64,000 bases of DNA, from the IMG/VR virus record IMGVR_UViG_3300023049_000005, positions 73,053-137,052 of that record; one strand, given 5' to 3'. The DNA is from a virus. How positions within the stretch are numbered: the stretch's first letter is position 1; every line of letters begins with the position of its first letter. A program made the translations under genes and the position numbers. The notes under the pieces were generated by a model. It was not told the DNA's origin and did no database searches. It saw only the letters and a list, made by a program, of their open reading frames with translations. This document shows, one piece after another, positions 220-64,000 of the stretch.

Positions 220-223
220 TATC

Positions 224-297
224 CCCTCTTAACTCAGTTGGCTAGAGTACCGTGCTTTTAACACGGGAGTCGCAAGTTCGAGCCTTGTAGGGGGGAC
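224..297 (+). tRNA. tRNA-Lys (anticodon UUU)
   Basis: Manual fold: acceptor cccctct/agggggg (one G-U), D-arm actc-agttggctaga-gagt, anticodon stem ccgtg/cacgg loop cttttaa, T-arm gcaag-ttcgagc-cttgt, discriminator A. Confidence 0.7.
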
Positions 298-305
298 AAA
301 ATATG

Positions 306-393
306 CAGGTGTATCCGTAGTTGGTCGAACGGTCCCGCCTTTTAAGCGGATGAGTGAAAGCTCCAACGTGGGTTCGAATCCCACCACCTGCAC
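306..393 (+). tRNA. Type-II tRNA (long variable arm with GAAA tetraloop); best fold gives anticodon loop cttttaa = UUU (alternative registration would give Leu-UAA)
   Basis: Acceptor gcaggtg/cacctgc, 3-bp D-stem, anticodon stem ccgc/gcgg, 17-nt variable arm (gagt-gaaa-gctc), T-arm gtggg-ttcgaat-cccac, discriminator A. Confidence 0.6.
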
Positions 394-398
394 AAACG

Positions 399-471
399 GT
401 GATATAGCTCAGTTGGTAGAGCAGTGGATTGAAGATCCACGTGTCGGGGGTTCAAGTCCCTCTATCACCAC
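399..471 (+). tRNA. tRNA-Phe (anticodon GAA)
   Basis: Acceptor ggtgata/tatcacc, D-arm gctc-agttggtaga-gcag, anticodon stem gtgga/tccac loop ttgaaga, T-arm ggggg-ttcaagt-ccctc. Confidence 0.7.
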
Positions 472-479
472 AACATATT

Positions 480-553
480 CCCTCGTAGCTCAGTTGGTTA
501 GAGCTACCGACTTTTAATCGGTAAGTCACAGGTTCGAGTCCTGTCGGGGGAAC
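480..553 (+). tRNA. tRNA-Lys (anticodon UUU); body closely resembles E. coli tRNA-Lys
   Basis: Acceptor tccctcg/cggggga, anticodon stem accga/tcggt loop cttttaa, T-arm acagg-ttcgagt-cctgt. Confidence 0.7.
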
Positions 554-558
554 ATATG

Positions 559-630
559 GAAACTTAGCTGAGACGGTTTAGCGGAAGGTTGAAGACCTTC
601 AGAGGTGGGTTCGATCCCCACAGTTTCCAC
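559..630 (+). tRNA. tRNA-Phe (anticodon GAA), second copy
   Basis: Perfect acceptor ggaaact/agtttcc, D-stem gctg/tagc, anticodon stem gaagg/ccttc loop ttgaaga, T-arm gtggg-ttcgatc-cccac. Confidence 0.6.
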
Positions 631-636
631 AATATT

Positions 637-710
637 CCTTCGTAGCTCAGTTGGCTAGAGTAACTGACTCTTAATCAGTGGGTCACAGGTTCGAGTCCTG
701 TCGGGGGAAC
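637..710 (+). tRNA. tRNA-Lys (anticodon CUU); paralog of 480..553
   Basis: Acceptor tccttcg/cggggga, anticodon stem actga/tcagt loop ctcttaa, T-arm identical to 480..553. Confidence 0.7.
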
Positions 711-801: not shown

Positions 802-1926
802 TCAAATAATTATTATACCGTCTCTATTAGGCGAAACGCTTAAGATTTTTATTCTCTGATGGAGATTATCTTGTATATAATTAATATATTGTCTAAAGTT
901 AGGATCTTCTAAATCTGCTTTAACCCATGATTTGAAATCATAATATTTACCACCACAATAAATTTTAAGTGGGGTTATATTTTCTAGTACATCAGATTTA
1001 GTCATAATTAAATCAGTTACTCCATTTAATTCTATACTCTCTTTTAATTCATCTAAGTTTAACCAACCACATCTTCTTGGTCTGCCTGTTGTAGCACCAA
1101 ACTCCCCACCTGCCTTCTGTATTCTTTCGCCAAGTTGATTTTTTAATTCAGTTTTCATATCACCATTACCAACTCGTGTTAAATATGATTTAAACACACC
1201 ATATACTTTACCAACACTCTGAGGTGGCATTGCCAACCCTACACATGCACCTGAACTTACTGTATTTGATGAAGTAACATATGGATAAGATCCATGATCA
1301 ATATCTAACATAGTACCTTGTGCGCCCTCTGCTAGTATTTCACCTTCTTGGTTTCTTAACCAATTAGACTTAACGATATTTAATGTTTTAAGAAATTCCA
1401 TACCTACTCTAAAATGTTCGAACTCAAGGAATTCATCTTGGTCTTTACCCATTAAATCAACAGGTTCTATATTTAGATCGTTTCCAATAAAATCCACAAC
1501 TCTATAACCTTCTCGGTATATTTTATCTCGATAACAAGGTCCGATCCCCTTTGGGGTACTACCTATGGTTGACACATTCTCTTTATCTTCCATAAAATGG
1601 AAAGGAGTCACTACGTGTGCGTTTTCTGAAATGAAAATTCTCTCTCTTGCGTTGGGTATATGTTCTTCAACTTCTTTTATTTCTTGCATCAATTGAAATG
1701 GGTCGATAACCATACCATTACCCAAAAAATTCTTTGTGTGTTCATGTACTATACCACTTGGTATTAAGTGTAAAACTATTTTTATTCCATTATGATATAT
1801 CGTATGTCCTGCGTTTGCACCGCCCTGATATCTAGCAACAATATCATATTTTTTAGACAACATATCTGTTATCTTTCCTTTTCCTTCGTCTCCAAATTGA
1901 AGCCCTACTAATACGTCCATAAACAA
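802..1926 (-). CDS. purA: Adenylosuccinate synthetase (PurA family; PurZ-like alternative not excluded)
   Basis: 374 aa; near-identical N-terminal motifs to E. coli PurA (GDEGKGKI, YQGGANAGHT, LHLIPSG), GAQG..LDIDHG.YPYVTSS, GATTGRPRRCGW, TKSD (GTP-specificity K/D retained). Confidence 0.9.
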   Translation of the reverse strand: MFMDVLVGLQFGDEGKGKITDMLSKKYDIVARYQGGANAGHTIYHNGIKIVLHLIPSGIVHEHTKNFLGNGMVIDPFQLMQEIKEVEEHIPNARERIFISENAHVVTPFHFMEDKENVSTIGSTPKGIGPCYRDKIYREGYRVVDFIGNDLNIEPVDLMGKDQDEFLEFEHFRVGMEFLKTLNIVKSNWLRNQEGEILAEGAQGTMLDIDHGSYPYVTSSNTVSSGACVGLAMPPQSVGKVYGVFKSYLTRVGNGDMKTELKNQLGERIQKAGGEFGATTGRPRRCGWLNLDELKESIELNGVTDLIMTKSDVLENITPLKIYCGGKYYDFKSWVKADLEDPNFRQYINYIQDNLHQRIKILSVSPNRDGIIII

Positions 1927-12386: not shown

Positions 12387-12428
12387 TTTAAACTGTTGTT
12401 AATAATATCTATGGGATTGTGCGTCATA

Positions 12429-28778: not shown

Positions 28779-30401
28779 ATGGAACAAAAGTTACTTGAAA
28801 TATTTGAAAGTCCTCATAGGATGAGGGAAACGTATGTTAAAAAACATCACCCAAGTCTATATGATAGTATTATATCATATGTGGATTTTGACATTTCTTT
28901 CAAAGAAAAGCTTTGGTATTACTATAATAAACTAGAAGAAAAAATTACATGTAAGTGTGGTAAGGAAACTACGTTCAATAAGAATTTTAAAGACGGTTAT
29001 AAAAAATATTGCTCTGCTAAATGCGCACAGACAGCCGAATCTACTAAAGAAAAAAGAAAGAAAACTACTTTACATAAATATGGTGTTGATAATGTAGCTA
29101 AAAGTCAGAAAATTAAAGACAAGACCGAAGAAACCAATATCGAAAGGTATGGTCATAGATCTACGTTTCAAAATAAAGAAGTTCAGAGCAAATGGAAGGA
29201 AAATATTAAAAACAAATATGGCGTTGATCATATCTTCCAATCAGAGGAAGTAAAAGGAAAGATACAAGATACTATGAAGGAAAGGTATGGTGGACATTAT
29301 ACCAAAACCGATCATTATACAGATAAGCTTGGTGAAATTGGATTCAAGGAACTAATAAGGAAAAAGAAGTTAGATAAACACAAAGATTTTTTTAAAACAC
29401 ATGGTTATGAGTTTATAGAAATTAAAGATTATAGGAAATTCACCATAAAAAAGGATGATGATATATTCGAAATATATTGGGAAACTTTTATAAATAGGCT
29501 AGAAAACGGATATGAAATATCTACTAATATAAACCCATTATATTATACAGGTCAAAGTGAAAAGGAAAAGGAACTCATATCATGGATTAGGACATTGGGT
29601 GTAGAAATCGATGAATCTAATAGAAAAATACTAAATGGTAAAGAAATAGATATATTTCTACCTGAATATAAATTAGGAATAGAATTCAATGGTTTATATT
29701 GGCATAGTGAAATGAATAAAGAAAAGAAACATCATATAAACAAAACAAAACAGTTAAATGAATTAGGAATTAGTTTGGTACACGTATGGGAGGATGATTG
29801 GGATCATAAAAAAAATATAATACAATCTATTATTCTTAATAAGTTAAATAAAATATCTAATAAGATATATGCTAGAAAGTGTATTATAAAAGAAGTAAAT
29901 AGTAAGGAAACTAATTCCTTTTTAGATAAAAACCATATACAAGGTAAGTCAAAGGCTAATATTAAATTAGGTCTATATTATAGAGATGAATTAGTTAGCC
30001 TAATGACGTTTGGTTATCGTAATATAAACGGAACTAAGCAATATGAACTGATTAGGTTTTGTAATAAAATAAATAATATTGTCGTTGGGTCAGCTTCTAA
30101 ATTATTTAAATATTTTATTAATAATTATAATTATGATAACATCTTATCATACTCTGATATAAGTATGTTTGATGGCAAATTATATGAAATGTTAGGATTC
30201 GAAAACATGGGGGAAACTTCTCTAAACTATTGGTGGGTTGTTGATAAAAAGAGGTATCATCGGTTTACATATAATAAGAAAAAGTTGATCAAAGAAGGAC
30301 ATGACCCAAACTTGACAGAAAAGGAAATTATGTATTCTCTAGGTAATTATAGAATTTGGGGATGTGGTCAAATTAGGTGGGTATATAAAAAACGATATTA
30401 A
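28779..30401 (+). CDS. Homing-endonuclease-like multidomain protein (zinc ribbon + KYG... repeats + Vsr/DUF559-type PD-(D/E)XK nuclease domain + conserved C-terminal domain)
   Basis: 540 aa; CKCG..CSAKC; IDIFLPEYKLGIEFNGLYWHSE...LVHVWEDDW nuclease core; paralog of 48871..50595. Confidence 0.6.
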   Translation: MEQKLLEIFESPHRMRETYVKKHHPSLYDSIISYVDFDISFKEKLWYYYNKLEEKITCKCGKETTFNKNFKDGYKKYCSAKCAQTAESTKEKRKKTTLHKYGVDNVAKSQKIKDKTEETNIERYGHRSTFQNKEVQSKWKENIKNKYGVDHIFQSEEVKGKIQDTMKERYGGHYTKTDHYTDKLGEIGFKELIRKKKLDKHKDFFKTHGYEFIEIKDYRKFTIKKDDDIFEIYWETFINRLENGYEISTNINPLYYTGQSEKEKELISWIRTLGVEIDESNRKILNGKEIDIFLPEYKLGIEFNGLYWHSEMNKEKKHHINKTKQLNELGISLVHVWEDDWDHKKNIIQSIILNKLNKISNKIYARKCIIKEVNSKETNSFLDKNHIQGKSKANIKLGLYYRDELVSLMTFGYRNINGTKQYELIRFCNKINNIVVGSASKLFKYFINNYNYDNILSYSDISMFDGKLYEMLGFENMGETSLNYWWVVDKKRYHRFTYNKKKLIKEGHDPNLTEKEIMYSLGNYRIWGCGQIRWVYKKRY

Positions 30402-32478: not shown

Positions 32479-32861
32479 TTTAATGGAGTGGAGATGGAGG
32501 GAGTCGAACCCTCGTCACAGACACTTTAGTATAATACTTTCTACAAGTTTAGTTTACATAGTTAGGGTAAACACCTTAGTTAAACTTATTTTTTTAAACT
32601 GTTCTAATCAAACCAAAATTCAGTCCTTCTTATAATAACTGCTAAGAAGTTTGCAGCTTGGAGTTTTGTCGGTTGCTTAGACAGCTAATACAAGTTCTCC
32701 GTCTTGTACAGATTCCGTAGAATCTAATGCGTCTAAAACGTCAATCTTTTCAGATACTACGTTTAATTGTTTATCTACTAATTTATTAATCGGACACTTT
32801 AATAGACAATCCGATACTTGCTTACACTATCTGAAAATGACGCTCTAATCCAGTCACCCCC
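32479..32861 (-). ncRNA. ssrA: tmRNA (SsrA), phage-encoded
   Basis: 5' GGGGGUGACUGGAUU... pairs with 3' ...CAUCUCC-A (7 bp incl. G3-U70), T-arm GAGGGUUCGACUCCCUC, candidate tag frame ending ...GELVLAV-UAA at 32677..32730. Confidence 0.7.
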
Positions 32862-40894: not shown

Positions 40895-41563
40895 ATGTTA
40901 TTTAAATATCAACAATTTTTAAAAGAGAATAATAGTCTTAATATTTGGTATCATGGTACACCCGATGGTAGAGGGATAGTCAAAGATGGATTCTCACAAA
41001 ATACTAAAAGTGTGGAATATTTAAAAGATATTGAAGGTTATAAAGATATTATGAACCAATTAGAACAAGCTAGAATAGATGGTAAAGATAAATACTTTGA
41101 GATATTAGATAAGATATCTGATTTCAAAGACAATTTCACTTTTAATAAACCTATATTTTTAAGTAATAATTATAGAGTTGCTTCTACGTATGCTACTGAG
41201 AAAAGAGCATTTGATTACCAAGAATCTATACCGAAAGTATTTAAAATGGGTATAAAAAACGAAGGTAAGGTATTAACTATATATGCTCACAATAAACGAT
41301 TTAGATTTATTGATTCTGATTTTATAAAAAAGGGGTTAATGGACGGTGGTATAAGTTCAGAAAAAGCTGAAGAAACTATAAGTAAATTCAATTTCTTTTC
41401 AAGAAAAGATGGGATATCGATAGATACTATTGGAGCTATTGCTACTTATTTAGGATTTGATACAGTAGATGTAGTTGGTGTATTAGATAGTTACCACGGT
41501 GGTACTGTAAAATCTACGGTAAGAATGGTATTTGATTCGAAGAATATAGAGATATTAAACTAA
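40895..41563 (+). CDS. Hypothetical protein
   Basis: 222-aa ORF; TTAATATATAAG 2 nt upstream of ATG. Confidence 0.5.
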   Translation: MLFKYQQFLKENNSLNIWYHGTPDGRGIVKDGFSQNTKSVEYLKDIEGYKDIMNQLEQARIDGKDKYFEILDKISDFKDNFTFNKPIFLSNNYRVASTYATEKRAFDYQESIPKVFKMGIKNEGKVLTIYAHNKRFRFIDSDFIKKGLMDGGISSEKAEETISKFNFFSRKDGISIDTIGAIATYLGFDTVDVVGVLDSYHGGTVKSTVRMVFDSKNIEILN

Positions 41564-41982
41564 TCTCCTAATATTTTATCTATCATATAATCTCTCATAA
41601 GATAACTAAAATTTTTATCATTAGATAATGTTTCTAAGGTATCATTATATGATTTCTCTGTAACAGTTAAATTATATTCTTTTACATAGTCTAATCTACG
41701 TAATAAAAATCGACGCATTAAATCCTTATCTCTGAAATAAAAAGTAGATTGATTTGATGCGTGATCAGAAGGATCTGTTTCTATTCTCGATAATTTATCA
41801 ACACTTAATTGACTTCCATAATAACAATTTTCTAATTTCAAATTATTATTTAACGGAAAATTCAATTCGTATATTTGACCTTGTGCGAATGGGTTGATGA
41901 TAACAGTAGTATAGCGATATTCTTCTAGTTTCTTAGCTATACTTTTAGATTGTTTACTAGTTAGACTAAGACCATTAACCAT
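41560..41982 (-). CDS. Hypothetical protein (antisense gene immediately upstream of terminase)
   Basis: 140-aa ORF. Confidence 0.45.
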   Translation of the reverse strand: MVNGLSLTSKQSKSIAKKLEEYRYTTVIINPFAQGQIYELNFPLNNNLKLENCYYGSQLSVDKLSRIETDPSDHASNQSTFYFRDKDLMRRFLLRRLDYVKEYNLTVTEKSYNDTLETLSNDKNFSYLMRDYMIDKILGD

Positions 41983-42228
41983 TTCATTAACTGTCTTAAA
42001 GGGTAATAATTCTAACTTATTGTTTTTTTTTATTATAATAAGTCTTTATATCATTAGCTAAAAATCCGTTATTCTCTTTAATGTAGATGAAATTATTTCT
42101 ATTATTTCCCATAATTTGTCTATTTATTACAGCAAATATAACCAATTTTAATTAAATATAGGCTAAAAGACCTATAAGTACTTAATATAGTCTTATATGG
42201 CTATAATTAAGTTTTTTATATATAATTC

Positions 42229-44466
42229 ATGAAAAAATTCTTAATTAAATTAATCTATAAATGTATAGAGCTTATAGAAAGGATAGAATATAGAAACCAT
42301 ATATTAGACGAAGATGATAATGATTATAAAATATTATCTGAACATGATGTTTATGGGTATAAAGTTAAATCTGATTCGGGTTATATTGATATTAGTAAAA
42401 TGATGATCACACAACCATATACTCATTATTATTTAGAGTTAGAAAATGGGATGAATTTGACTTGTGCTGATAATCATAGAATATTTGATCAATATTTAAG
42501 TGAAATGTTTGTGAAACACTTAAAGGTAGGTGATAAAATATCTACTGAATCAGGTATATCTAAAGTTAAGATAATAAAGAAATTGAAAAGAAAGACTTCT
42601 ATGGTTGATATTACAGTTGATCATGAAGACCATAGGTATTATACAAATGGTATATTAAGTCATAACACAGTATGTGCGGCTATTTATATATTACATTATA
42701 TGATGTTTAATAATAATAAAAACGTACTTATTGCTGCGAATAAATTAGAAACATCACAAGAAGTACTTGATAAAATTAAGACACTTTATAGTTACATTCC
42801 ATTGTTTTTAAAACAAGGTATTGATACATGGAATGTAAATAGGATAAAATTTGAGAACGGATGTAGAGCTAAAGCATTCGCAATGACGAAAAATGCTTCT
42901 ATTGGTAATGCGGGTGACTTAGTATATGTTGATGAGTTTGCCCATATTAATAATAATATAGCAGATAAATTCTATAAATCTATTTTCCCTACTTTAGCAT
43001 CTATCGAAAATTCTAAAATGATTATTACATCGACACCTGATGGATATAACCTATTTCATAAACTATTAACAGATGCTGAGAGAGAAATATCAGATCCATT
43101 GAAGAATGAGTTTACACCATTGAGGGTTTATTGGCATCAAGTACCTGGTCGTAATGTAACTTATTTCAAGATAAACCAACATTTATTATTACAACAGAAT
43201 TTAGATTTAGATTCGGTCTTTGAACAATTGAAAGAAATATATAACCCTAACGATGATGTCAATTCTAATAATATTCCTCTTGTAACAAAGAAAACACAAA
43301 GTATTAATAGGAAAACATGGATACATGTACAGAACACAGAAAGATTAAAATATGATGATCTTAAAAATACTTCTGTGGTCAATAGAGATGGTGAAAAAAT
43401 ATTTTGTTCTACATTCTGTGATGGTATTTCTACTTGGAAATTAGATGCAATTAAGAATATTGGTGGTGAGGATAACTTTAATCAAGAATATGATCTTCGT
43501 TTCGCATCAGGGTCTAGAAGTGTATTAAAAGAAGAAACCATTGAAAGAATTACTAATAGTAAACAAAAGTATAGACATATTAATGGATTAGAAGAATTCG
43601 ATAAATTAAAATGGGATTATAGCTCATTAAAATTCGCTAAAGATTGGGATGAAGATATGAGAAAGAATATGTATGGTATGATCTCCGTCGATGTATCTGA
43701 GGGATTAGGTCAAGATTATAGTGTAATTAATATGTTCAGATTAGGATATAAATCACAAGAAATAATAGAAGAACAAAAGGAACACTATTCAGTAAGAGAA
43801 GACTTTTTTCAATTAACTCAATTTGGATTATTTAGATCTAATATAATTAGTGTAGAGCAACTTGCTGAGATACTTTATGTATTGATATTCGAATTTTTTG
43901 ATCCTGATAAAATGAAAGTAGTTGTTGAATATAACAATGACGGAAAGACATTATTGAATGCTATTAAGAACGTATTCAACAGAGAGAATGATTATAGTAC
44001 TTATGTTATGTTAAAATTTAAACATCGATTAGATGCTGTTGATCGAAAGGTAGGTCTGAAAGTAGGACTTAATAAAAATAAGTTTGTTAAAGATTATCAG
44101 TTAATGTTAGAAGATCAGACTATTTTAGTTAGTGAAGAGAATACTATCAAAGAGATATCTACCTTTATTTCACATGAAACAGCAGCAGGGAATGTGATTT
44201 ATAGAGGGGATGGTTCTAATGATGACTTAGCTATGACTATTGTGAATCTAACACAAGGTTGGAGAAACAGATCATTTAAAGATACTGTATTAGATTTCAT
44301 GGATAATGAACCGAATAATATTATAAATAAATTAATAGCTGAGGTATTAGAAAAGGAGAAGTCTATTGGAACAGATTATGGATCTTTTTTTAAGGGTAAG
44401 AAAAATTACACAAATTATAATACTAGAAATTTTAGAGGGGGTATAGACCCTAAATCACTTATTTAA
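42229..44466 (+). CDS. terL: Large terminase subunit (T4 gp17-like) C-terminal portion preceded by a mini-intein; N-terminal ATPase segment not encoded upstream
   Basis: From residue 146 aligns with gp17 right after Walker A (TVCAAIYILHY..., Walker B LVYVDEFAHI, ITSTPDGYN); residues ~12-145 carry intein blocks B (GMNLTCADNHRIF) and F/G (VDITVDHEDHRYYTNGILSHN|T). Confidence 0.8.
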   Translation: MKKFLIKLIYKCIELIERIEYRNHILDEDDNDYKILSEHDVYGYKVKSDSGYIDISKMMITQPYTHYYLELENGMNLTCADNHRIFDQYLSEMFVKHLKVGDKISTESGISKVKIIKKLKRKTSMVDITVDHEDHRYYTNGILSHNTVCAAIYILHYMMFNNNKNVLIAANKLETSQEVLDKIKTLYSYIPLFLKQGIDTWNVNRIKFENGCRAKAFAMTKNASIGNAGDLVYVDEFAHINNNIADKFYKSIFPTLASIENSKMIITSTPDGYNLFHKLLTDAEREISDPLKNEFTPLRVYWHQVPGRNVTYFKINQHLLLQQNLDLDSVFEQLKEIYNPNDDVNSNNIPLVTKKTQSINRKTWIHVQNTERLKYDDLKNTSVVNRDGEKIFCSTFCDGISTWKLDAIKNIGGEDNFNQEYDLRFASGSRSVLKEETIERITNSKQKYRHINGLEEFDKLKWDYSSLKFAKDWDEDMRKNMYGMISVDVSEGLGQDYSVINMFRLGYKSQEIIEEQKEHYSVREDFFQLTQFGLFRSNIISVEQLAEILYVLIFEFFDPDKMKVVVEYNNDGKTLLNAIKNVFNRENDYSTYVMLKFKHRLDAVDRKVGLKVGLNKNKFVKDYQLMLEDQTILVSEENTIKEISTFISHETAAGNVIYRGDGSNDDLAMTIVNLTQGWRNRSFKDTVLDFMDNEPNNIINKLIAEVLEKEKSIGTDYGSFFKGKKNYTNYNTRNFRGGIDPKSLI
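42262..42663 (+). mobile_element. Mini-intein (Hint domain, no endonuclease domain) in terminase P-loop
   Basis: Cys12 ... block B TxxH-type ... terminal HN followed by Thr; ~134 aa. Confidence 0.65.
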
Positions 44467-44811
44467 GCTTTCATCTATCATTTTTTTCCATTCGGCAGCA
44501 CCTTCGTAATCTTCAACTTTAACACAATTTTCCATTTCGGTTTCCATTTCCTTGATTGCGTCTTTTTTAATTATATTAAGGTTCTTCTCAACATTAGCTT
44601 CTAGTCCTACTAATATTTGATTGTTTTTTTGATGTAATCTAACAGTTCTTTCGGTTCTTAATTCATTTAGACCATTATTAAAATCATTTAATTCACCTAT
44701 TGTGTTAGATTCGAATATTTCCTCAGTGAGTTTTACTATCTCAATAAATACATCGTTTTTATTGGTATGTAATTCCAAGTACCCTACTATTCTATCTTTC
44801 ATTTTATCCAT
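44455..44811 (-). CDS. Hypothetical protein
   Basis: 118-aa ORF overlapping terminase stop by 12 nt. Confidence 0.4.
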   Translation of the reverse strand: MDKMKDRIVGYLELHTNKNDVFIEIVKLTEEIFESNTIGELNDFNNGLNELRTERTVRLHQKNNQILVGLEANVEKNLNIIKKDAIKEMETEMENCVKVEDYEGAAEWKKMIDESLNK

Positions 44812-44954
44812 AATCTTATTATTTTATAATCTACCCATACCACAAAGTTAAGGATTTTATTTAAATATATACATTATATAGGTATATAGTATAAACTGTA
44901 AAATACCACTTTTAGAAGTTAATATATATATTAGAAAAAAAATATTTAAACAAT

Positions 44955-47900
44955 ATGCCAACAGTAGATATAGGTAAATACCAAAGACCAGGAATTTTCA
45001 TAGAAGAATTTAATAACTCAGCAATAGAAACACCTATTGTTACAGGTATTCAGTCATTAGTTATTGGTTCTAGTAAGAAAGGACCTCTCAATACACCTGT
45101 TGTAATTAACTCACAAATCCAATTAGAAAGAATTTTTGGAACAATTGATAGATCTTTAGAATCAAAGGGTTCTTTTTTTCACAGAACTATATCAAGAGTT
45201 TTACAAAACACACCCGTAGTTGCTATGAACATAGTAGACTTAGACGACGATTTAGATCAAATCGAGTATAAATCATTATCAACAGCAACAGGTTATGTAA
45301 ATGATGCAATAAGAGAAGCACCATATAGTAGATTTTTCAATACTTCTGCTTTTTGGGAAAAAGATAGAGAAGCATTTTTATCTGTAACAGACGATAACGC
45401 AGGTGACGAAAATAGAGTATTACACTTCACTAACTTAAATAATAGACAAGTTACTATCTTTATAGTAAAGTCACAAAACTCATATGGATTTGATAAAACA
45501 TTATTAGAATGGTATGGATCAGTTGATAAAGTACCTTTATATTTGGATAAAAATGATTTCGCATCAGACTACTTAGTAGATGTTGTAATGTTATCAGGAG
45601 ATTGGACTAATTACACTGAATTATCAGTAGATCCAATTTGGAGTCAATACTTCAATAACCAAGGATTAGTTAAAGATCAATTATTCAATTTAGTGAATAA
45701 TCAAAGTATTAATACGTTAGGGGTATTCAGAAACTTATCATTAATCCCTTACTTCACAGATGCTAGTAACACTAACATCTTTATTGAAGATAGAATTAAT
45801 TTAAGAACTGATGAAACAGGTATTTATATGGCATATAATATCGACGCAGTAGAAACTACATATAGAAATGGTTTATTAGATTTAGTAGGTAATAATATTA
45901 TTGCTGATAACACTATTGAAAGAATTGAAATGTTATCATATAATGATGATGTTACAGAAAAAAACGAATATGTTGAAAAACAATTAGATTCATTAGGTAA
46001 TACACACCAATTAACATTTGGTTCTTATTATCAAGAAGCGGGTCAAGAAAGAAAGGCAGCATACGCAGAGGATTTTGTGATCGGTCTTATCGGACCTTCT
46101 GCATCTGAGATTGATGGTACATACCCATCGGATGTAGGATATGGTACATATAGCGTAGATTTTGGTACAACTTCTGTAACAATTGGAGCAGAACAACCAT
46201 ATGCTATCATTGGTGGACAAGCTTTATTAATAGCTGCTACTGATTTTGATTTTGTTCCTGATGATTTTACGACAAATAGTACAAGTCCTGGAACAACACA
46301 AAGTTTCCAAAAAGTATTCTTTATTGATACTGACGGTGGTATTAAAACTAACCCTAATAACAATGACCTCACAAATGGTATAGTATTAGGTTACGTTGAT
46401 ATTATAGTAGCATTAGATGCAGATAGAGTTAAATATTTCCAATCTGTTGACTATACACCTGTATCAGTAGGTGAAAGTGGATTTATCTACTTTGATAATT
46501 CAACTGATGTAACAGTAACAGTTAACGCTAATCAAAATCAAATTACATATGAATTCTTAAACACAACAGGAGTTCCTGATGTAACTGATTATGTTGGATA
46601 TAGAAGATGGAAGACATTTAATAATATGTCAGGTATCTTAAGTAGTTCAACAGGAAATAGAGCAACAATATTAGTAGATGAAGGAAGTGGTTCTAATGGA
46701 AATCCATGGAAAAGAGCTATTGCTGATCTAGACGTTACATTAGTAACTAGCACTACATTAAATAAAACAATAACAATTAGTGGATTTGATACAGGATTTT
46801 TAAATTCTTCTATCTTAGAAACTAACGGACTTGTATTACATATAATTGATAATGAATTTGTATTATCATCAGAAGGTGCTATTACAACAAATAATTGGAT
46901 TGGAGCAACATATGGTATAGTAGCTGAATACAGTGATTTATATCAAGATTATATAGATGGTAATATAAACACAGGAGATTATTTCTACGAAAACTTAATT
47001 GATGGATTAGATAATACAGCCGAAGCATCTGAGTTAAACTATGTTAGATTATTAGATATCAATGGTGATGATTACTTAATAAGTGATAAAGAATTAAATT
47101 TCCAAACGAATGATACTATTATCTTACCTGAATCTACAAGTAACACAGGAGAATTGATCGTTTCAGATCCAACTCCAATTGCTACGGGATTAACGGGAGC
47201 GACAGGTGCGTATTTTGGATATTTATTATCATCTAATATTACTGATGAAGTAATAGTTAATCCAACTAAGATTTGGTTAACAAGCGGAACAGGACAAAAA
47301 TTCCTAAGATTTTACTTAGTGAATGATATATTGACAATTGATTTTACTGATGCTAGTCTAAACCCTGGTGCGAGTACATTCAATAAAACGATTGATATTA
47401 TTTCACAATCATCTAATTTTAGACAAACAGTAGAAATAGAAGAACCTGTAGGATACACTCCTATAACTAATAAAATATTAGTAGATGCTACTAGATATGC
47501 TGAAATTAGAATAGGTGATTTCTTACAAGCAGTAGCACCTGAGGCAACTGAATTAGGAGAAGTTCCAAGACAAGTAACAAGAGTTATCAGAAAAAGAACA
47601 TATTCTGAGGATGTATCATTAGTAGAAATTACATGTGATTCAGCTATTAGATTATATGACTTCAATGGTGATAAACAAACATACAGATTTACACAGATCG
47701 ATGATTATGTATCAACATATAAAGGTATTAATTTATTTGGTTTCAGATTAAGAACAGCTTCTTTACCTGATAATACTGATAGTAGATTAACAGATATATT
47801 AAATGTAGTAGGTAAAGGAACATCTTTATATAACGCATTAACAGATAAAAATATCATTGATTTTAGATACTTGATCGATTCTTATGGATTAGGTCTTATA

Positions 47901-48764
47901 AGTAATTCTAAGCAACAATTAGCTGATATTTGTGGTAAGCGTTTAGATTGCTTCGGTATATTAAACATGCCAAGTATGAAACAATTTAGAAATGCTGCAG
48001 CACCGAGTTTCACTGATAGTAGAGGTGCTATTAGATTTGATTATATCAGATTAGGAGGTAACCCTGAAGCAGTTGCGGGATTTAACTTCTCATTAGCAGA
48101 AGGCGATGGTCAAACATGTGTGGCTTACTTTACTCCTTATGTAACAATAGGAGATAACGGTAGACCAATTTCATTACCACCATCATCATTTGTGGCTAAC
48201 ACTTTCCTTAGAAAGCATAATAACGCTCTAACAAGTGTGACACCATGGACTATTGCTGCGGGTATTACTGATGGACAAATTACAGGTATATCAGGATTAG
48301 AATATAATTTAACAAATGAAGATATCATCGAGTTAAACCAAATGTCAGTTAACCCAATTGTTTCTAAGAGAAACAGAGGTAATGTAATTGAAACTGAGAA
48401 TACAGCAGAATCACTAGTAAATAGTGCATTAAGCTTTATCCATTCAAGAGAAGTATTAATTGAATTAGAAAGAGATCTTTCTGATATGTTACTACAATTC
48501 CAATGGAAATATAACACACCTGAGATTAGATCAGAGATCAAATTAAGAGCAGATACTATCTGTCAAGACTATGTAAATAGAAACGGACTATTTAACTTCT
48601 TTAATAAGATTGATAGTGAAAACAACACACAGGAGATTATCGATAATCAAATAGGTGTATTAGACACATATGTTGAGATTATTAAAGGTATGGGTGTAAT
48701 TGTTAATAACATCACGATACTTAATACGGGTGCAATTGATTCATCAGGTTTTCAAACTAGTTAA
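44955..48764 (+). CDS. Tail sheath protein, T4 gp18-like, with large internal insertions (1269 aa)
   Basis: N-terminus MPTVDIGKYQRPGIFIEE parallels gp18 N-terminus; C-terminal domain (VNPIVSKRNRGNVIETENT...) parallels conserved gp18 C-terminus; followed by terminator. Confidence 0.7.
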   Translation: MPTVDIGKYQRPGIFIEEFNNSAIETPIVTGIQSLVIGSSKKGPLNTPVVINSQIQLERIFGTIDRSLESKGSFFHRTISRVLQNTPVVAMNIVDLDDDLDQIEYKSLSTATGYVNDAIREAPYSRFFNTSAFWEKDREAFLSVTDDNAGDENRVLHFTNLNNRQVTIFIVKSQNSYGFDKTLLEWYGSVDKVPLYLDKNDFASDYLVDVVMLSGDWTNYTELSVDPIWSQYFNNQGLVKDQLFNLVNNQSINTLGVFRNLSLIPYFTDASNTNIFIEDRINLRTDETGIYMAYNIDAVETTYRNGLLDLVGNNIIADNTIERIEMLSYNDDVTEKNEYVEKQLDSLGNTHQLTFGSYYQEAGQERKAAYAEDFVIGLIGPSASEIDGTYPSDVGYGTYSVDFGTTSVTIGAEQPYAIIGGQALLIAATDFDFVPDDFTTNSTSPGTTQSFQKVFFIDTDGGIKTNPNNNDLTNGIVLGYVDIIVALDADRVKYFQSVDYTPVSVGESGFIYFDNSTDVTVTVNANQNQITYEFLNTTGVPDVTDYVGYRRWKTFNNMSGILSSSTGNRATILVDEGSGSNGNPWKRAIADLDVTLVTSTTLNKTITISGFDTGFLNSSILETNGLVLHIIDNEFVLSSEGAITTNNWIGATYGIVAEYSDLYQDYIDGNINTGDYFYENLIDGLDNTAEASELNYVRLLDINGDDYLISDKELNFQTNDTIILPESTSNTGELIVSDPTPIATGLTGATGAYFGYLLSSNITDEVIVNPTKIWLTSGTGQKFLRFYLVNDILTIDFTDASLNPGASTFNKTIDIISQSSNFRQTVEIEEPVGYTPITNKILVDATRYAEIRIGDFLQAVAPEATELGEVPRQVTRVIRKRTYSEDVSLVEITCDSAIRLYDFNGDKQTYRFTQIDDYVSTYKGINLFGFRLRTASLPDNTDSRLTDILNVVGKGTSLYNALTDKNIIDFRYLIDSYGLGLISNSKQQLADICGKRLDCFGILNMPSMKQFRNAAAPSFTDSRGAIRFDYIRLGGNPEAVAGFNFSLAEGDGQTCVAYFTPYVTIGDNGRPISLPPSSFVANTFLRKHNNALTSVTPWTIAAGITDGQITGISGLEYNLTNEDIIELNQMSVNPIVSKRNRGNVIETENTAESLVNSALSFIHSREVLIELERDLSDMLLQFQWKYNTPEIRSEIKLRADTICQDYVNRNGLFNFFNKIDSENNTQEIIDNQIGVLDTYVEIIKGMGVIVNNITILNTGAIDSSGFQTS

Positions 48765-48870: not shown

Positions 48871-50595
48871 ATGCTATCAAAGGAATTCATAAAAGAGTTC
48901 AATTTCAATAATAAGTCAGGTAAGATGTCTAGTTCTAAATATGTATCAAAGAACTATGCTGCGGATTATGATATTATTATAGGTAATATTAAAGAAGATA
49001 TCTCATTTAAAGAGAAAGTATATCTAACTGTTAATGATATTAACCATTCTCCTAATTGTAAGAATCCTAATTGTAATGACAAGGTAAAATTCAGAAATAC
49101 TACTTTAGGGTATAGAGAGTATTGTTCTAATAAATGTATTGGTTCAGATCCTAATATGATCAAAAGAAAAGAACAAAAGTCTTTAGAAAAGTTTGGCACA
49201 AAAACACCTGCCGAATCAGAAGTAATCAAACAAAAAATGATCAATACTAATAATAAATTATATGGTGGTAATTCTCCTATGTCAAATAAAGAAATTCAAG
49301 AGAAATCTAAGAAAACTTTAATGGGTAATTGGGGTGTAGAAAACCCTAACAGACATAAAGATTTAACAGAAAAAAGAATTAAGAGTTTTAAAAAAAATAT
49401 AGATCAGTTTAAGGCTTCTTTCAAAGAAACTAGCTTAAAGAAATATGGTGTGGAACACCATTGGATGGTTAAAGAAATACACGATAAAGGAATTAAAACT
49501 ACTAATAAGAAAAAACTTCAAAAGGAAGAAACTAAAATTAAAAAGAGGATACCAAGTGATTATAAATTACTTGGAATATTCAAAGAAAGTGAATTACATA
49601 ACAGAACAAGTAGTAGGATGTTATGTAATAAGGGTCATGAATTTGTCATAAATAATGATCTTTTATATCATAGGACAGTTAAAAACGATACAGTGATATG
49701 TACTGAATGTCATCCTCAAAATAATAGAAGTGTAAGTGGATTAGAATTACAACTACTTAATTTCATCGAAGAAAGTTATGAAGGTGAAATCATAACTAAT
49801 AATAGAACTATTATACCGCCACACGAAGTAGATATTTATCTACCTGAAATCAAATTAGCTATTGAATTTAATGGTCTTTTTTGGCATAGTGAGATCAATA
49901 AGGACAAGTATTATCACTTCAATAAAACTAATGAAGCTGAGAAAGAAGGCATACAGATGTTACATATTTGGGAAGACGATTGGCTATTGAAGGATGATAT
50001 AGTTAAATCTATGTTAAAGAATAAATTCAATAATACTCCTAATAAAGTATTTGGTAGAAAATGTAAAATTAAAAAAGTTGGCTCTAAGGAATACAGAGAA
50101 TTCTTAGATAATAATCATATACAAGGTTATTCTAATTCTACTTACTCGTATGGTTTGTATTATAACGAAAAATTAGTTAGTCTAATGACCTTTTCTAAAC
50201 CAAGGAATATGATGGGACATAAAAGTAGAGATAATGTTTATGAGTTAGCTAGGTTTTGTAATAAGACTAATTACAATATAGTAGGTGGTGCTTCTAAATT
50301 ATTTAAACACTTTATAAAAGAACATTCTCCTAAAGAAATATATTCTTTTAGTGATAGGTCATATTCTAATGGTAATCTTTATAAGATATTAGGGTTTGAA
50401 TATAGTCACAGAAGTAAAATAAATTACCATTGGGTATTAAACAAAGAGAGAAAGCATAGATATAATTTTGCTAAACATAAACTAGTAGAAAAGGGATACG
50501 ATCCCAATTTATCAGAAAGGGAAATTATGTATGAACAAGTGGGTGCTTATAGAATATGGAATAGTGGTCAAGATAAGTGGGTTTATCACATATAG
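48871..50595 (+). CDS. Homing-endonuclease-like multidomain protein, paralog of 28779..30401
   Basis: 574 aa; CKNPNC..CSNKC, EVDIYLPEIKLAIEFNGLFWHSE...LHIWEDDW, shared C-terminal domain (YRIWNSGQDKW). Confidence 0.6.
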   Translation: MLSKEFIKEFNFNNKSGKMSSSKYVSKNYAADYDIIIGNIKEDISFKEKVYLTVNDINHSPNCKNPNCNDKVKFRNTTLGYREYCSNKCIGSDPNMIKRKEQKSLEKFGTKTPAESEVIKQKMINTNNKLYGGNSPMSNKEIQEKSKKTLMGNWGVENPNRHKDLTEKRIKSFKKNIDQFKASFKETSLKKYGVEHHWMVKEIHDKGIKTTNKKKLQKEETKIKKRIPSDYKLLGIFKESELHNRTSSRMLCNKGHEFVINNDLLYHRTVKNDTVICTECHPQNNRSVSGLELQLLNFIEESYEGEIITNNRTIIPPHEVDIYLPEIKLAIEFNGLFWHSEINKDKYYHFNKTNEAEKEGIQMLHIWEDDWLLKDDIVKSMLKNKFNNTPNKVFGRKCKIKKVGSKEYREFLDNNHIQGYSNSTYSYGLYYNEKLVSLMTFSKPRNMMGHKSRDNVYELARFCNKTNYNIVGGASKLFKHFIKEHSPKEIYSFSDRSYSNGNLYKILGFEYSHRSKINYHWVLNKERKHRYNFAKHKLVEKGYDPNLSEREIMYEQVGAYRIWNSGQDKWVYHI

Positions 50596-60074: not shown

Positions 60075-63000
60075 TTATACAGTAGGCACTGTTTCTAATA
60101 TAGCACTATCGTCTGCATCAAATCTTATCTCATAAGACCTTTTCACAGTTCTGTTCTGACCATATCCATTTTCGGCTCTTATCTCTACTACTACATAAGG
60201 ATCTATACTACTATCTAAAGTAAAGTTATATGGTAAGAACATATTTTCACCACTTCTATATTCTTTAAAACTCTGTACCATTTCTAGATCTATTTCTGCC
60301 CATTTTGTAACATCATCCCACAATATAAAATCAGTGTTTTCTAATAATATATTTTCCTGAGGCGAAATTTCTCTCTCTTTAACTTTATAAAGATCTTTAG
60401 TCTTATTATAATCTTTTCTTAGGTTTAATATCATTGTCCTAGCTTCGATACTATTTGCGGGTTTAGTTCCTTCATATTGTGTTTCGGGTAAATTGAGTAG
60501 GTCAATAGATATATCAGTCAATAATGATTCATCTCTATCTAATAAATCACACCATCTATTTGGGTAATTGGATCTAATTATATCTAATACGTCAAAATTA
60601 TTTGCTATCATATCTTCTTCTATTCGTAAGTAGTTAGGAGTGTCGGGTTCGTTACCTAATAAATCAAGTAGATCGTTATATAAATTATCATCTACACCAT
60701 TTCTACTATCAGGTGTTCCGACTAAACATGATCCACTAGCACCCACCCAAGGTAAGTAATTAACCGTTGTAGTTCTTAATGAATATTTATAAAACCTTCT
60801 TTTATATTTTACTACATTACTGTCTTCGTATAAAGTATTAACATCCCATGTATCCACTTCTTGGAATTCTAAAGGAGTATTATTGAAGTTTAATACTACA
60901 TTACCTTCATCTTCTAATACGTTCTCATATATTTTACCAAAATAATCCACCTTATCTCCTGTGTTGTATGAATTAAATGCTTCCCATTTATCATATGTCT
61001 TATAGGTTTTCACACCTAATGTAAAATAATCAGGAGAATCATTTGAAGCTGTTAGAAAATCAATTATTGTAGTATATACTGTACTACCATTTTGTATAGG
61101 CATCACATAAGATTCTTCTATATTAAAGTCTATCTCTGACATAGTATCATTGGTTTCGAAAACTTTAATAGATGATGATGTATCAAAATTTTGATCTATA
61201 GATAAGAAACTCAATTCCCCTGTTATATCTTTAATTTCATGTGTTAGTGGAATAATATTCTTCTCTAACCAATATTTAAGACCTTCTAATTTGATGATAG
61301 CTTCTTCTATACTATATGTGATCAACTTATTTCCTTCGAAATCAGTGATTCTATATGTAAGGTTAAATAGTTTAGTTTCTTCATAGTTCGGGTTAGGGAA
61401 TTGATAAAATTTATAATTATCTGTCCAACCGTCTATGTCATTATTGAATATATCCTCAACCTCAACTTTAAATAGTTTCAAGAACTCTGCGCTATCTACA
61501 TTTATGTTTTGGAAATATTCATATAATATAAGGTCATTATAACCAAAGTAATTTATAGCATTTATGATACTTCTATATGCACCTAAGTAGTTATAGATAT
61601 CATTTTTTACTGTAAGTAATTCCTTACGTTTCTCATTCATAAATGTCCAATCAATACCACCCTCATTTATATCATAGTCTTTGAAAATATAAATATCCTC
61701 AGGGTTTATAATCTTACCTATATTAGTTAATTCATTTTTAAATCTTTCATCTTCTATTTCTGTTTGTGCGTAAATATCAAACTCAGCTACTTTCTTTTTG
61801 ATTACTTCTAAAGTTAAATCTAAATATGTAGTAGTTCCTTCTGATGGGTATTCTACTGCAGTTGTTTCATTAGTAAATGTATTATCATCTAAATATTCAA
61901 CAATAAGTTCTCTTTCAAATAATTGGATTATTTTCACATTAATATTATCATTTGATGACACATACCCAACATCGTTTGTAGTATCAAGAACTCTTATGTT
62001 TAAGAATTGGTTTTCATTAAAATTAGTACTTGTTCCTGTTAAATTATCTAAGTCAACTATTTGATTAAAAGTATCTGTTGAGTTGGATGATAATGTTATT
62101 ATACCTCTATTATTTTCGCTATCATGTGTAAATGTAAATTCTTGATCAGGTAGTGTTACTGAGAATTCTGAGTTAGTAAATGAATCATACGAAGGAAAAG
62201 TAAATTTAATATCTTCATCTTCATATATGTTTAGAATATTATTAATAACCCCCTCTGTTTTGGAATTGAACCCGATAAAAGTTTGTATAGACACAGGAGT
62301 AAATGATATATTTTCCTCACTATCATTATAATCTAATGTATATGTAAGATTATTAAATATTGTTTGTTGTGCATATCCCTCATCTACTAAATTTAAATCT
62401 CTATTTGGTTTCCTTTTTATAATAGGATTAGGTAATGGTTTAGTTCCTGTGTATGAATAACTACCTGTTGATTCAAGGAAATCACCTGTTACGTCATACA
62501 TAAATAATTCTTTAAGTATTTCATCTTCTGTGTTCTCCCATCTATATTCCCAAGTAGCCTGTGGTGCGCCATCAGTCATGTAATTCTTCCTTGGTCTTCT
62601 AATAAACTCTCTTGTCTTTAACTTAATGTAATCATCTAAGGAAGTATCATTGTCTTCTGATAATGATCCATATGTTTCTGATCCGTTAGTATCAAACGGT
62701 GTTGAAGCAGAAGCTTGTGATGATAAGTTAAATATATTAGAAAATGCCTTTAGTTCATAAATAAAATCAACATCAATTGATAATATTTGATTATTATTTA
62801 AGTTAATACCATATATATCATTAGTACTCTTATTTATATTTATTTTATCAACATTGAAATCAACATTTAAAGTAAAGAATACTTGATTAACATAGGTTGA
62901 AAATACTTTTATTTCTTGATTCTGTGTTGCAATATAAATATGAGAATCATTAGGACTAGTAAATATAAATCCATGATCTGTGATATCAAGATTATCAGCA

Positions 63001-64000
63001 ATGATATCTATTTCACTTATAGAAACTAATTTCCCTTCTTCGTTATTAATCCAAAAATACTTATTGAAATTATCTAATGTTATAGAATAATAATTATTAG
63101 TCGATATACCAAAGCTAGTGAATGTAGAATCACTGTTTATCTTATTTAATTCCCCATCGTTGGCTACGTACATTGATCCATTATATGGGTTGTAGTGTAA
63201 CTCACCCGATTCTCTTTCTAGTCCCAAATAACTAGGCGTAGATCCTGTAGAACCAACTCCTATGTTACTAGCAGTTATTCCATCTATTAAGAAATCACCA
63301 AATACTACTTTAGTATCAGTATTAACTTTATAAAGGATTTTATCGCTTGTTATACCAATATCTAAGTTTTGTCTACCGAAGATATACATTGCTTCTTCAT
63401 CTCTGTTATAAGTCATCTTATTCCAATTATAATTTGCTTGGAAATCAAATGATATGAAACTAAAATCAACAGGGTCAATGATCATTATTCTATCACTATC
63501 TGTAAATGATATATATGTTTCACCTGTTATATAATCAACTTCCATATCCCAACCAATTCCTAAGTTAGAAACAGTTGATTTTATCTGATTTAAATAAGGA
63601 TCTATAACATATACAAAGTTATCACTGAGTACATATAAAAGGTTATTAAATGGGTTCATAGACTGCATAATAGGGGCTTCTATACTACTAATAGTATCCT
63701 CTACCCTAAAAGTAGAACTAATTAAATTAACTTGATCGGTCAATGCTATATTCTTAAACGTAGAGTTTAAGTAGTCGATATCAACTAAATTAGAATTTAA
63801 AGTAAGGTACTTAATATCATCAGGATTAAAAGAAGCTGTTAAACTAATTGCGCTTTCATCATAATAAAAAGCATTCTCTCTTTCTATAGTAATGACTTGG
63901 TTTCCATCAGCAGCTTGGTAGAAATTCTTAGCAACCTTTGTTACAGACGCAGTAGAGAAACTACCACTATCAATGTATAGAATAGTATCACCTATTTCAA
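60075..64000 (-). CDS. Very large structural-type protein (tail fibre/baseplate candidate), 5' end beyond window
   Basis: Frame stays open past the TTG the ORF track used as start (63741..63743) to the window edge; >1300 aa, Asn/Thr/Ser/Asp-rich. Confidence 0.55.
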   Translation of the reverse strand, partial: EIGDTILYIDSGSFSTASVTKVAKNFYQAADGNQVITIERENAFYYDESAISLTASFNPDDIKYLTLNSNLVDIDYLNSTFKNIALTDQVNLISSTFRVEDTISSIEAPIMQSMNPFNNLLYVLSDNFVYVIDPYLNQIKSTVSNLGIGWDMEVDYITGETYISFTDSDRIMIIDPVDFSFISFDFQANYNWNKMTYNRDEEAMYIFGRQNLDIGITSDKILYKVNTDTKVVFGDFLIDGITASNIGVGSTGSTPSYLGLERESGELHYNPYNGSMYVANDGELNKINSDSTFTSFGISTNNYYSITLDNFNKYFWINNEEGKLVSISEIDIIADNLDITDHGFIFTSPNDSHIYIATQNQEIKVFSTYVNQVFFTLNVDFNVDKININKSTNDIYGINLNNNQILSIDVDFIYELKAFSNIFNLSSQASASTPFDTNGSETYGSLSEDNDTSLDDYIKLKTREFIRRPRKNYMTDGAPQATWEYRWENTEDEILKELFMYDVTGDFLESTGSYSYTGTKPLPNPIIKRKPNRDLNLVDEGYAQQTIFNNLTYTLDYNDSEENISFTPVSIQTFIGFNSKTEGVINNILNIYEDEDIKFTFPSYDSFTNSEFSVTLPDQEFTFTHDSENNRGIITLSSNSTDTFNQIVDLDNLTGTSTNFNENQFLNIRVLDTTNDVGYVSSNDNINVKIIQLFERELIVEYLDDNTFTNETTAVEYPSEGTTTYLDLTLEVIKKKVAEFDIYAQTEIEDERFKNELTNIGKIINPEDIYIFKDYDINEGGIDWTFMNEKRKELLTVKNDIYNYLGAYRSIINAINYFGYNDLILYEYFQNINVDSAEFLKLFKVEVEDIFNNDIDGWTDNYKFYQFPNPNYEETKLFNLTYRITDFEGNKLITYSIEEAIIKLEGLKYWLEKNIIPLTHEIKDITGELSFLSIDQNFDTSSSIKVFETNDTMSEIDFNIEESYVMPIQNGSTVYTTIIDFLTASNDSPDYFTLGVKTYKTYDKWEAFNSYNTGDKVDYFGKIYENVLEDEGNVVLNFNNTPLEFQEVDTWDVNTLYEDSNVVKYKRRFYKYSLRTTTVNYLPWVGASGSCLVGTPDSRNGVDDNLYNDLLDLLGNEPDTPNYLRIEEDMIANNFDVLDIIRSNYPNRWCDLLDRDESLLTDISIDLLNLPETQYEGTKPANSIEARTMILNLRKDYNKTKDLYKVKEREISPQENILLENTDFILWDDVTKWAEIDLEMVQSFKEYRSGENMFLPYNFTLDSSIDPYVVVEIRAENGYGQNRTVKRSYEIRFDADDSAILETVPTV

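Follow-up and report, generated by a model that had tools for sequence, protein, structure and literature searches.

The AceL-TerL, GOS-TerL and Cat inteins are reportedly natural, atypically split inteins of the phage terminase large subunit (TerL), and trans-splicing has been demonstrated for all three. In cyanobacteria, the essential enzyme DnaE is likewise produced from two distant genes, whose products are joined by protein trans-splicing. Naturally split TerL inteins were described together with the fractured-gene arrangement, in which a free-standing homing endonuclease gene of a Vsr-like family lies between the N-half and the C-half of the interrupted gene (Dassa et al., 2009, PMC2677866). 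The N-terminal intein fragments (IntN) of published natural atypically split inteins comprise 15-37 residues, and AceL and GOS are split just past helix α1 (PMC13014065). In TerL, the junction of the Lys and the Thr of Walker A is a classic P-loop insertion site for inteins (Kelley et al., 2016, PMC5050341). The present analysis concerns a TerL gene in a stretch of 64,000 nucleotides, hereafter the window, that covers positions 73,053 to 137,052 of the virus record IMGVR_UViG_3300023049_000005. Its 745-residue product begins with the C-terminal fragment (IntC) of an intein inserted at the P-loop site. We put at roughly 0.85 the probability that the TerL gene is naturally and atypically split and that the window holds its C-terminal half, the partner being a 165-amino-acid gene at least ~60 kb away in the same genome. 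This reading draws on the anatomy of the sequence, the Hint fold, the conservation of catalytic residues, the existence and co-occurrence of the partner, the colinearity of the exteins and an evolutionary series among relatives. The gene and its parts are as follows, in window coordinates; here and below a slash marks a splice junction.

42229..44466 (+): gene for IntC and the TerL C-extein, 745 residues, identical to database protein P0416
42229..42666 (+): IntC, residues 1-146, which make up the larger part of a split class-1 intein with a Hint domain
42232..42294 (+): amphipathic helix at the N-terminus of IntC, residues 2-22, KKFLIKLIYKCIELIERIEYR, assigned from the secondary structure of the AlphaFold2 model (H2-22) and holding the non-catalytic Cys12
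42463..42477 (+): intein block B, CADNH, residues 79-83, with the conserved block-B His as His83
42598..42666 (+): intein blocks F and G, SMVDITVDHEDHRYYTNGILSHN, residues 124-146, with penultimate His145 and terminal Asn146 (SHN)
42667..42669 (+): Thr147, which is both the +1 nucleophile and the Walker A Thr (GK/T)
42667..44463 (+): TerL C-extein, residues 147-745 (599 residues), the rest of the ATPase domain and the nuclease domain
42919..42945 (+): Walker B, LVYVDEFAH, residues 231-239

The open reading frame (ORF) starts at ATG 42229, and an in-frame TAA (42223..42225) lies two codons 5′ of it. The Pfam match to Terminase_6N is confined to residues 147-292, which correspond to profile positions 11-155, directly past Walker A, and PHROG TerL families match the protein from about residues 125-147 onward. 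A preliminary description, made from the sequence alone, had reported the same ORF behind this in-frame stop and an antisense ORF at 41560..41982, and had placed the beginning of the terminase directly past the Walker A GK with Walker B following; all of this was confirmed.

Residues 1-146 belong to an intein. A sequence search of the PDB with IntC (phmmer) returned inteins only: the best match among solved structures was the C fragment of Cat, the AceL/GOS consensus intein (6dsl_B, 5.7e-6, query residues 27-146), followed by gp41-1 (3.9e-5) and VidaL (1.2e-4). The AlphaFold2 model of residues 1-164, built with 59 homologues, has a mean predicted local-distance difference test score (pLDDT) of 82 and consists of the helix at residues 2-22 and a beta-rich domain at residues 35-130, with lower confidence across residues 131-150, which depend on strands that are missing here. 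When this model was searched against the PDB with Foldseek, all of the top 50 matches were inteins or intein-like Hint domains, and the template-modelling (TM) scores were low (0.3-0.44) because the Hint domain is incomplete. Block A with Cys1, the first strands and helix α1 are missing from IntC, and all three are encoded in a separate N-half. Residues 1-146 are therefore the C-terminal fragment of a Hint-fold intein. They are neither an ordinary terminase N-domain nor the complete P-loop mini-intein for which they had been taken in the preliminary description.

Conservation was counted over 110 homologous N-termini, diverging to ~45% identity. A80, D81, H83, D127, H135, R136, L143, S144, H145, N146 and T147 each occur in all 110, and C79 in 108; block B, the C-terminal blocks and the +1 Thr, as first recognized, are thus invariant or nearly so, and the P-loop insertion at GK/T, as first proposed, is shared with the inteins of Vi01-like phages. 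Among 60 sequences aligned over the N-terminal helix, E17 never varies, and I13 and E20 are each kept in at least 90%. In the CADNH motif, the position of the usual block-B Thr (TxxH) is occupied by Ala, and His83 is kept.

The N-half is not encoded nearby. A Walker A regular expression, tblastn searches that used two N-exteins as queries, and a profile built from 120 N-halves and run with filters off detected none in the window or in extra flanks of 8 kb and 6.7 kb, and positive controls for the profile scored 1.4e-87 and 3.2e-42; the earlier statement that no ORF of the window encodes the ATPase N-domain thus holds also for the ~15 kb of added flanks. No N-half lies up to 50 kb upstream or up to 26 kb downstream of the C-half, no endonuclease gene adjoins the C-half, and no second TerL is present in 78.7 kb around the window.

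A matching N-half, P0392, was found via a profile search of 1.84 billion representatives, which led to P0245 (nearest the window lineage) and, through a further search and a cluster look-up, to P0392 itself; it was not among the best 120 matches of the first homologue search, for which the N-half of phage LR756501 had been the query. P0392 consists of 165 residues, namely an N-extein of 114 residues ending in the Walker A sequence ...SRQIGK and an IntN of 51 residues that starts with Cys1 (CVDPLTEV), with the junction ...SILMASRQIGK/CVDPLTEVKIIDKTDNNYIMPFFRLLYKSKVSKTIYDHIKYVLYSLLYKLS. Its ORF (L009 10001..10498) has its own ATG and TAG. It lies on contig k141_41822 (156,286 bp) of the ENA assembly ERZ27315366, and the window matches k141_4805 (206,690 bp) of the same assembly. 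The Logan run SRR7141805 also holds both, P0392 on SRR7141805_4200 and the window gene on SRR7141805_2824. The longest contig recorded for P0392 and for P0416 is in each case 270,756 bp, and in this third assembly the two apparently share one contig of that length. The G+C contents of the two loci are 30.3% and 29.7%. The gene positions in the two ENA contigs put the halves at least ~60.7 kb from each other, and the genome would be at least 363 kb if k141_4805 and k141_41822 do not overlap. The search for a gene with an N-extein and IntN that had been suggested at the outset thus succeeded, and of the explanations offered there, the one in which the window holds IntC and the C-extein with the N-half elsewhere is borne out by P0392 in the same assembly and by the same layout in more than 100 related TerL clusters.

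The two halves fit each other. When the exteins are joined in silico, 114 and 599 residues give a TerL of 713 residues with an intact Walker A, which is 61.8% identical over 705 positions, end to end, to the intein-less P0132 (706 residues); the regenerated junction reads SRQIGK-TVCAAIYILH, and Thr147 aligns with the SRQVGK-T of intein-less TerLs. Concatenations of IntN and IntC are colinear with the contiguous inteins of P0251, P0304, P0325 and P0373, with no segment lost or duplicated. The split point corresponds to the loop between two helices in contiguous relatives, and in unsplit relatives the N-terminal helix of IntC runs on directly from the C-terminal helix of IntN. Identities of N-halves and C-halves are correlated (r = 0.93 over seven same-genome pairs), and the window pair lies on the trend, with 52-64% (N) and 58-63% (C) to the same partners and 41% and 39% to LR756501. 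This pattern of divergence is consistent with co-evolution of the halves.

In the proposed mechanism, the polypeptides of 165 and 745 residues would associate and complete one Hint fold, to which IntN would contribute block A (Cys1), the first strands and helix α1, and IntC blocks B, F and G; association would probably be aided by the conserved helices that border the split, one per fragment. Class-1 trans-splicing would then proceed by an N-S acyl shift at Cys1, trans-esterification to Thr+1, cyclisation of Asn146 and an O-N shift, and the product would be a TerL of 713 residues with its GKT P-loop intact.

The same layout is widespread among relatives. The closest records in phage collections are huge uncultured phages of 460-735 kb (LR7565xx, LR745206). 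LR745206 has a contiguous, intein-less TerL of 710 residues (...SRQVGK-TISASIF), and LR756501 (735 kb) has the layout of the window, with a 755-residue ORF starting MRKFLRRVIYKLLELIEK... and a separate N-half gene for 181 residues 12.5 kb upstream on the same strand, in which ...SRQVGK/CIDFTSVLTV... is followed by ~55 residues. A search with this N-half gave 176 proteins of ~166-189 residues with an invariant SILMASRQxGK/C. The profile search of representatives added many more N-halves of 160-200 residues, which brings the N-half proteins to more than 200 overall, and also contiguous TerLs of ~800-925 residues, in which the match extends through the IntN tail. Of the 228 N-half-like proteins, 221 have Cys after GK. 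In P0336 and P0380, Ala or Ser stands in its place (AIDPSVRV..., SLSPLSKV...), and these are possibly Ala1 or Ser1 variants of the split intein. IntN comprises 51 residues in the window's partner and 43-114 in the family (median 54); its extra ~21 residues form a conserved tail (...R.L...E.IK..LYK.L).

Among the closest 120 TerL clusters, 109 lack Walker A and start with IntC, 10 are intein-less at this site and one, P0131, carries a different intein, an unrelated Ala1 LAGLIDADG intein at the same GK/T site. The nuclease domain holds a contiguous LAGLIDADG intein (...DDC/VPGDT...VHN/C.MT) in P0122, whose TerL C-part is 70% identical to that of the window, and in P0139. With at least three such elements, TerL in this clade is, as judged from sequence, a hotspot for inteins.

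The relatives can be arranged in a series that runs from a contiguous mini-intein through a contiguous intein with a helical insertion, halves around a Vsr-like endonuclease gene, halves around a decayed endonuclease gene and halves 12.5 kb apart to halves at least 60 kb apart. On a Tara scaffold (L015), the order is Rnl1 (-), further genes, N-half (+), a 323-residue gene (+), C-half (+), UVR (-) and sheath, and the 323-residue protein has a C-terminal DUF559/MTES_1575 (Vsr-like) domain; on a JGI contig (L016), the halves flank a decayed endonuclease gene, of which the N-terminal part alone survives. These fractured-gene relatives show ~61% identity. In the window genome, this endonuclease gene is absent and the blocks of the N-half and the C-half are separated; Rnl1 still adjoins the N-half and UVR and sheath the C-half, and synteny is kept on the outer sides only. 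In some genomes, the N-half has genes for RNA ligase, SMC-like and DnaJ proteins as neighbours, and the C-half is next to the sheath/structural module. In LR756500.1, a 462-kb phage, matches to the N- and C-exteins lie ~2.3 kb apart (193434..197788, -) with an intein-like match between them (195688..196080), which probably represents a larger contiguous intein or an endonuclease-containing version.

Four other explanations have to be weighed. The intein halves might serve only as a dimerisation module, so that TerL would work as a two-chain ATPase without splicing; split-intein fragments do bind each other, and the conserved helices at the ends of the two fragments could serve association alone. 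Such non-covalent reconstitution is improbable because residues required solely for the chemistry (Cys1, His83, His145, Asn146 and Thr+1) are invariant. A Hint domain of 197 residues between the P-loop Lys and Thr is, moreover, expected to disrupt ATP binding, and unspliced TerL inteins have been argued to be incompatible with the pentamer (Kelley et al., 2016, PMC5050341).

There is also a slim chance that the window gene is a decaying remnant, a truncated and non-functional TerL fragment, and that an intact terminase encoded elsewhere packages the genome. Part of the genome has been seen, and in huge phages terL may be duplicated or replaced; terL replacement has been discussed (PMC12880540). 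Against this, the ORF is intact over 745 residues within a conserved TerL-UVR-sheath module and is 93% identical to P0121 without disruptions, more than 100 clusters keep the catalytic motifs of the intein and of TerL, there is a matching N-half that is itself intact, and the 78.7 kb examined contain no other TerL.

In the preliminary description, the intein had been taken to start at Cys12, and it was considered that a contiguous gene might have lost its N-extein to an insertion of 40895..41982, might be read by recoding or might be interrupted by an erroneous TAA. The in-frame TAA just upstream and the unrelated ORFs that fill the upstream region fit this explanation, which is nevertheless rejected, as it is refuted at several points. 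The protein and its start were recovered identically in three independent assemblies, and the N-terminus (M[KR]KF/Y...IYK) is kept in LR756501 and other relatives. The Cys12 column of the 110 homologues contains mostly Leu (70), Ile (16) and Ser (7), so that Cys12 is not the nucleophile; it falls within the linker helix in contiguous relatives, and block A with Cys1 is on the N-half. No coding sequence for an N-extein was found in any frame up to 50 kb upstream. An RNA-level interruption by a group I or II intron, as in the terL of gut Jug phages, can practically be dismissed: terL fragmented by group I introns has been reported in jumbo phages (PMC12880540), but no group I or II intron family of Rfam matched the window or the N-half locus at gathering thresholds, the break is bordered by the two parts of a Hint domain, and the two genes, which have separate start and stop codons, lie at least 60 kb from each other.

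The evidence thus favours a trans-spliced TerL encoded by two genes, and several points weigh on the other side. Ala or Cys stands in CADNH where the Thr of the block-B TxxH usually sits, and Pfam intein models gave no match on the window protein; the homologue P0127 has a weak match to PF14890. Inspection covered about 100 kb, the genome being at least 363 kb long, and a second, intact TerL could lie elsewhere. The linkage of P0392 with the window gene is based on the same sample, the same run and an identical length of the longest contig. Splicing itself and its necessity for packaging are inferred from established intein chemistry and the insertion position inside Walker A, and the helices at the junction are a putative docking zipper.

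The surroundings of the gene were compared with those of the relatives by means of the UVR and sheath genes, which served as the anchor for gene order (Pfam; tblastn against the Tara and JGI relatives). The flanking features are as follows.

40895..41563 (+) and 41560..41982 (-): two ORFs of 222 and 140 residues, function unassigned, not part of the intein
41983..42228 (no strand): intergenic region without terminase coding sequence, none of whose frames matches an N-extein
44455..48764: neighbours on the downstream side, in synteny with relatives, namely a protein with a UVR motif at 44455..44811 (-) and a tail-sheath-like protein of 1269 residues at 44955..48764 (+)

The two ORFs at 40895..41982 occupy the site where relatives have the N-half and the homing endonuclease gene. 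They gave no significant Pfam or PHROG match and showed no similarity to the 323-residue endonuclease of the Tara relative. TTATATATA, which is present upstream of both half-genes, was rejected as a shared motif, as it is not enriched (9 observed, 8.9 expected). The intein queries used gave no match to any further intein in the window. Two segments, 49768..49983 (+), which sits in a 574-residue DUF7487 ORF downstream of the sheath gene, and 29649..29834 (+), weakly resemble the Vsr-like/DUF559 domain of the Tara endonuclease (E ~2-3e-4, 28-32% identity) and may belong to other homing-endonuclease-like genes. Farther away, a six-tRNA cluster and a phage-encoded tmRNA were detected at 223..709 (+) and 32486..32861 (-) (Rfam, gathering level; tRNA 52-73 bits, tmRNA 59 bits). 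Genes for PurA (adenylosuccinate synthase), PRPP synthetase, a protein with sigma-70 region 2 and a DEAD_2/ResIII helicase lie at 802..1926 (-) and, upstream of the window, at L006 290..4532, and an IMPDH-like gene lies inside the window from L006 20409 onward (about window position 12408). Such genes of nucleotide metabolism and transcription are typical of huge phages. A giant ORF of 2199 residues without Pfam matches occupies 60075..64000 (-) and runs past the window (L008 10794..17393).

With 109 of the 120 closest TerL clusters starting with IntC, an entire clade of huge phages appears to rely on protein trans-splicing for its packaging ATPase. Where TerL serves as a phylogenetic marker or in estimating completeness, pipelines would see a truncated TerL and an orphan 'hypothetical' protein of 165-180 residues unless the halves are paired. 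The relatives provide an unusually complete series for the origin and dispersal of a split intein and, for engineering, a large set of natural inteins that are atypically split, have Thr+1 at the junction and carry helices at the fragment ends. Split inteins, atypical split sites in TerL (since 2009), fractured genes and distant half-genes (DnaE) are already known, and the mechanism itself is therefore not new; what is found here is a new and very common form of it. A limited literature search found no description of a split P-loop TerL intein, of its prevalence in huge phages, of intermediate fragments with junction helices or of dispersed halves. Tentatively, and with some doubt, we suggest a large and apparently undescribed family of split P-loop TerL inteins that dominates one clade of huge phages. 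In this family, the split would fall in a helix-loop-helix insertion, giving an IntN of ~50 and an IntC of ~146 residues, amphipathic helices would zip the halves together, and the halves would have drifted apart in some genomes; separate expression could time motor assembly, and hundreds of members could form a library for engineering.

By sequence comparison, the window intein has its closest homologues in the mini-inteins annotated at the P-loop of TerL in Vi01-like phages. The mini-intein of Vi01-like Ackermannviridae is inserted in the same host protein, a T4-type TerL, between the Walker A Lys and Thr, is 36% identical over residues 14-146 of the window IntC (E ~1e-14, tblastn; 296 phage records) and shares Cys1, Thr+1 and a related C-terminal SHN block. 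In Salmonella phage Maynard, for example, gp50 is annotated 'intein from Cys110-Asn268' (...ARQSGK/CVRGDT...GFLSHN/TTVVAAF). Unlike the window intein, the Vi01-like inteins are contiguous (159 residues) and cis-splicing, and the linker from α1 to the following beta strands is a short loop instead of two helices.

The kinship with AceL-TerL that had been suspected earlier stands in part. The window intein resembles AceL, GOS and Cat in its phage TerL host and in a split near the N-terminus of the intein that leaves blocks B, F and G on IntC, and Cat is its best match among solved structures, with ~26% identity in the Foldseek structural alignment. The window split is in the same general region and would lie ~21 residues beyond that of AceL, after an extra helix; in the AceL/GOS (Cat) family, the split site S2 directly follows helix α1, and IntN has 25-37 residues. 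In contrast, the Cat-type site is farther downstream in TerL and has Cys+1 (...QEYD../C[S/E]FLGS), the Vi01-like inteins are closer, IntN is longer (51 residues compared with 15-37), and so is IntC (146 compared with 104-122 in the AceL/GOS/Cat type). The insertion site of AceL and GOS was deduced from the Cat-like intein of Vibrio phage VP-1 (L017, MH363700.1 74807..78149), which has both a contiguous P-loop intein of the window type and a Cat-like split intein (...QEYDCLWGQS and ...GVVSHN/CSFLGS, followed by a GIY-YIG endonuclease-like sequence). Because the Cat-like site differs from GK/T and both inteins are present in VP-1, the window intein is not allelic with AceL-TerL and GOS-TerL. The VP-1 record annotates two coding sequences, 'terminase large subunit' and 'terminase like family protein'. 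This phage could be a culturable system for TerL trans-splicing.

As for gene arrangement, the Tara relative corresponds exactly to the fractured gene, and the JGI contig does so with a decayed endonuclease gene, whereas the window genome has lost the endonuclease gene, and its halves are at least 60 kb apart. DnaE differs from the window intein in its canonical split site (a long IntN and an IntC of ~36 residues), its cellular host and its extein, but resembles it in that one enzyme, here TerL, is encoded by two distant genes.

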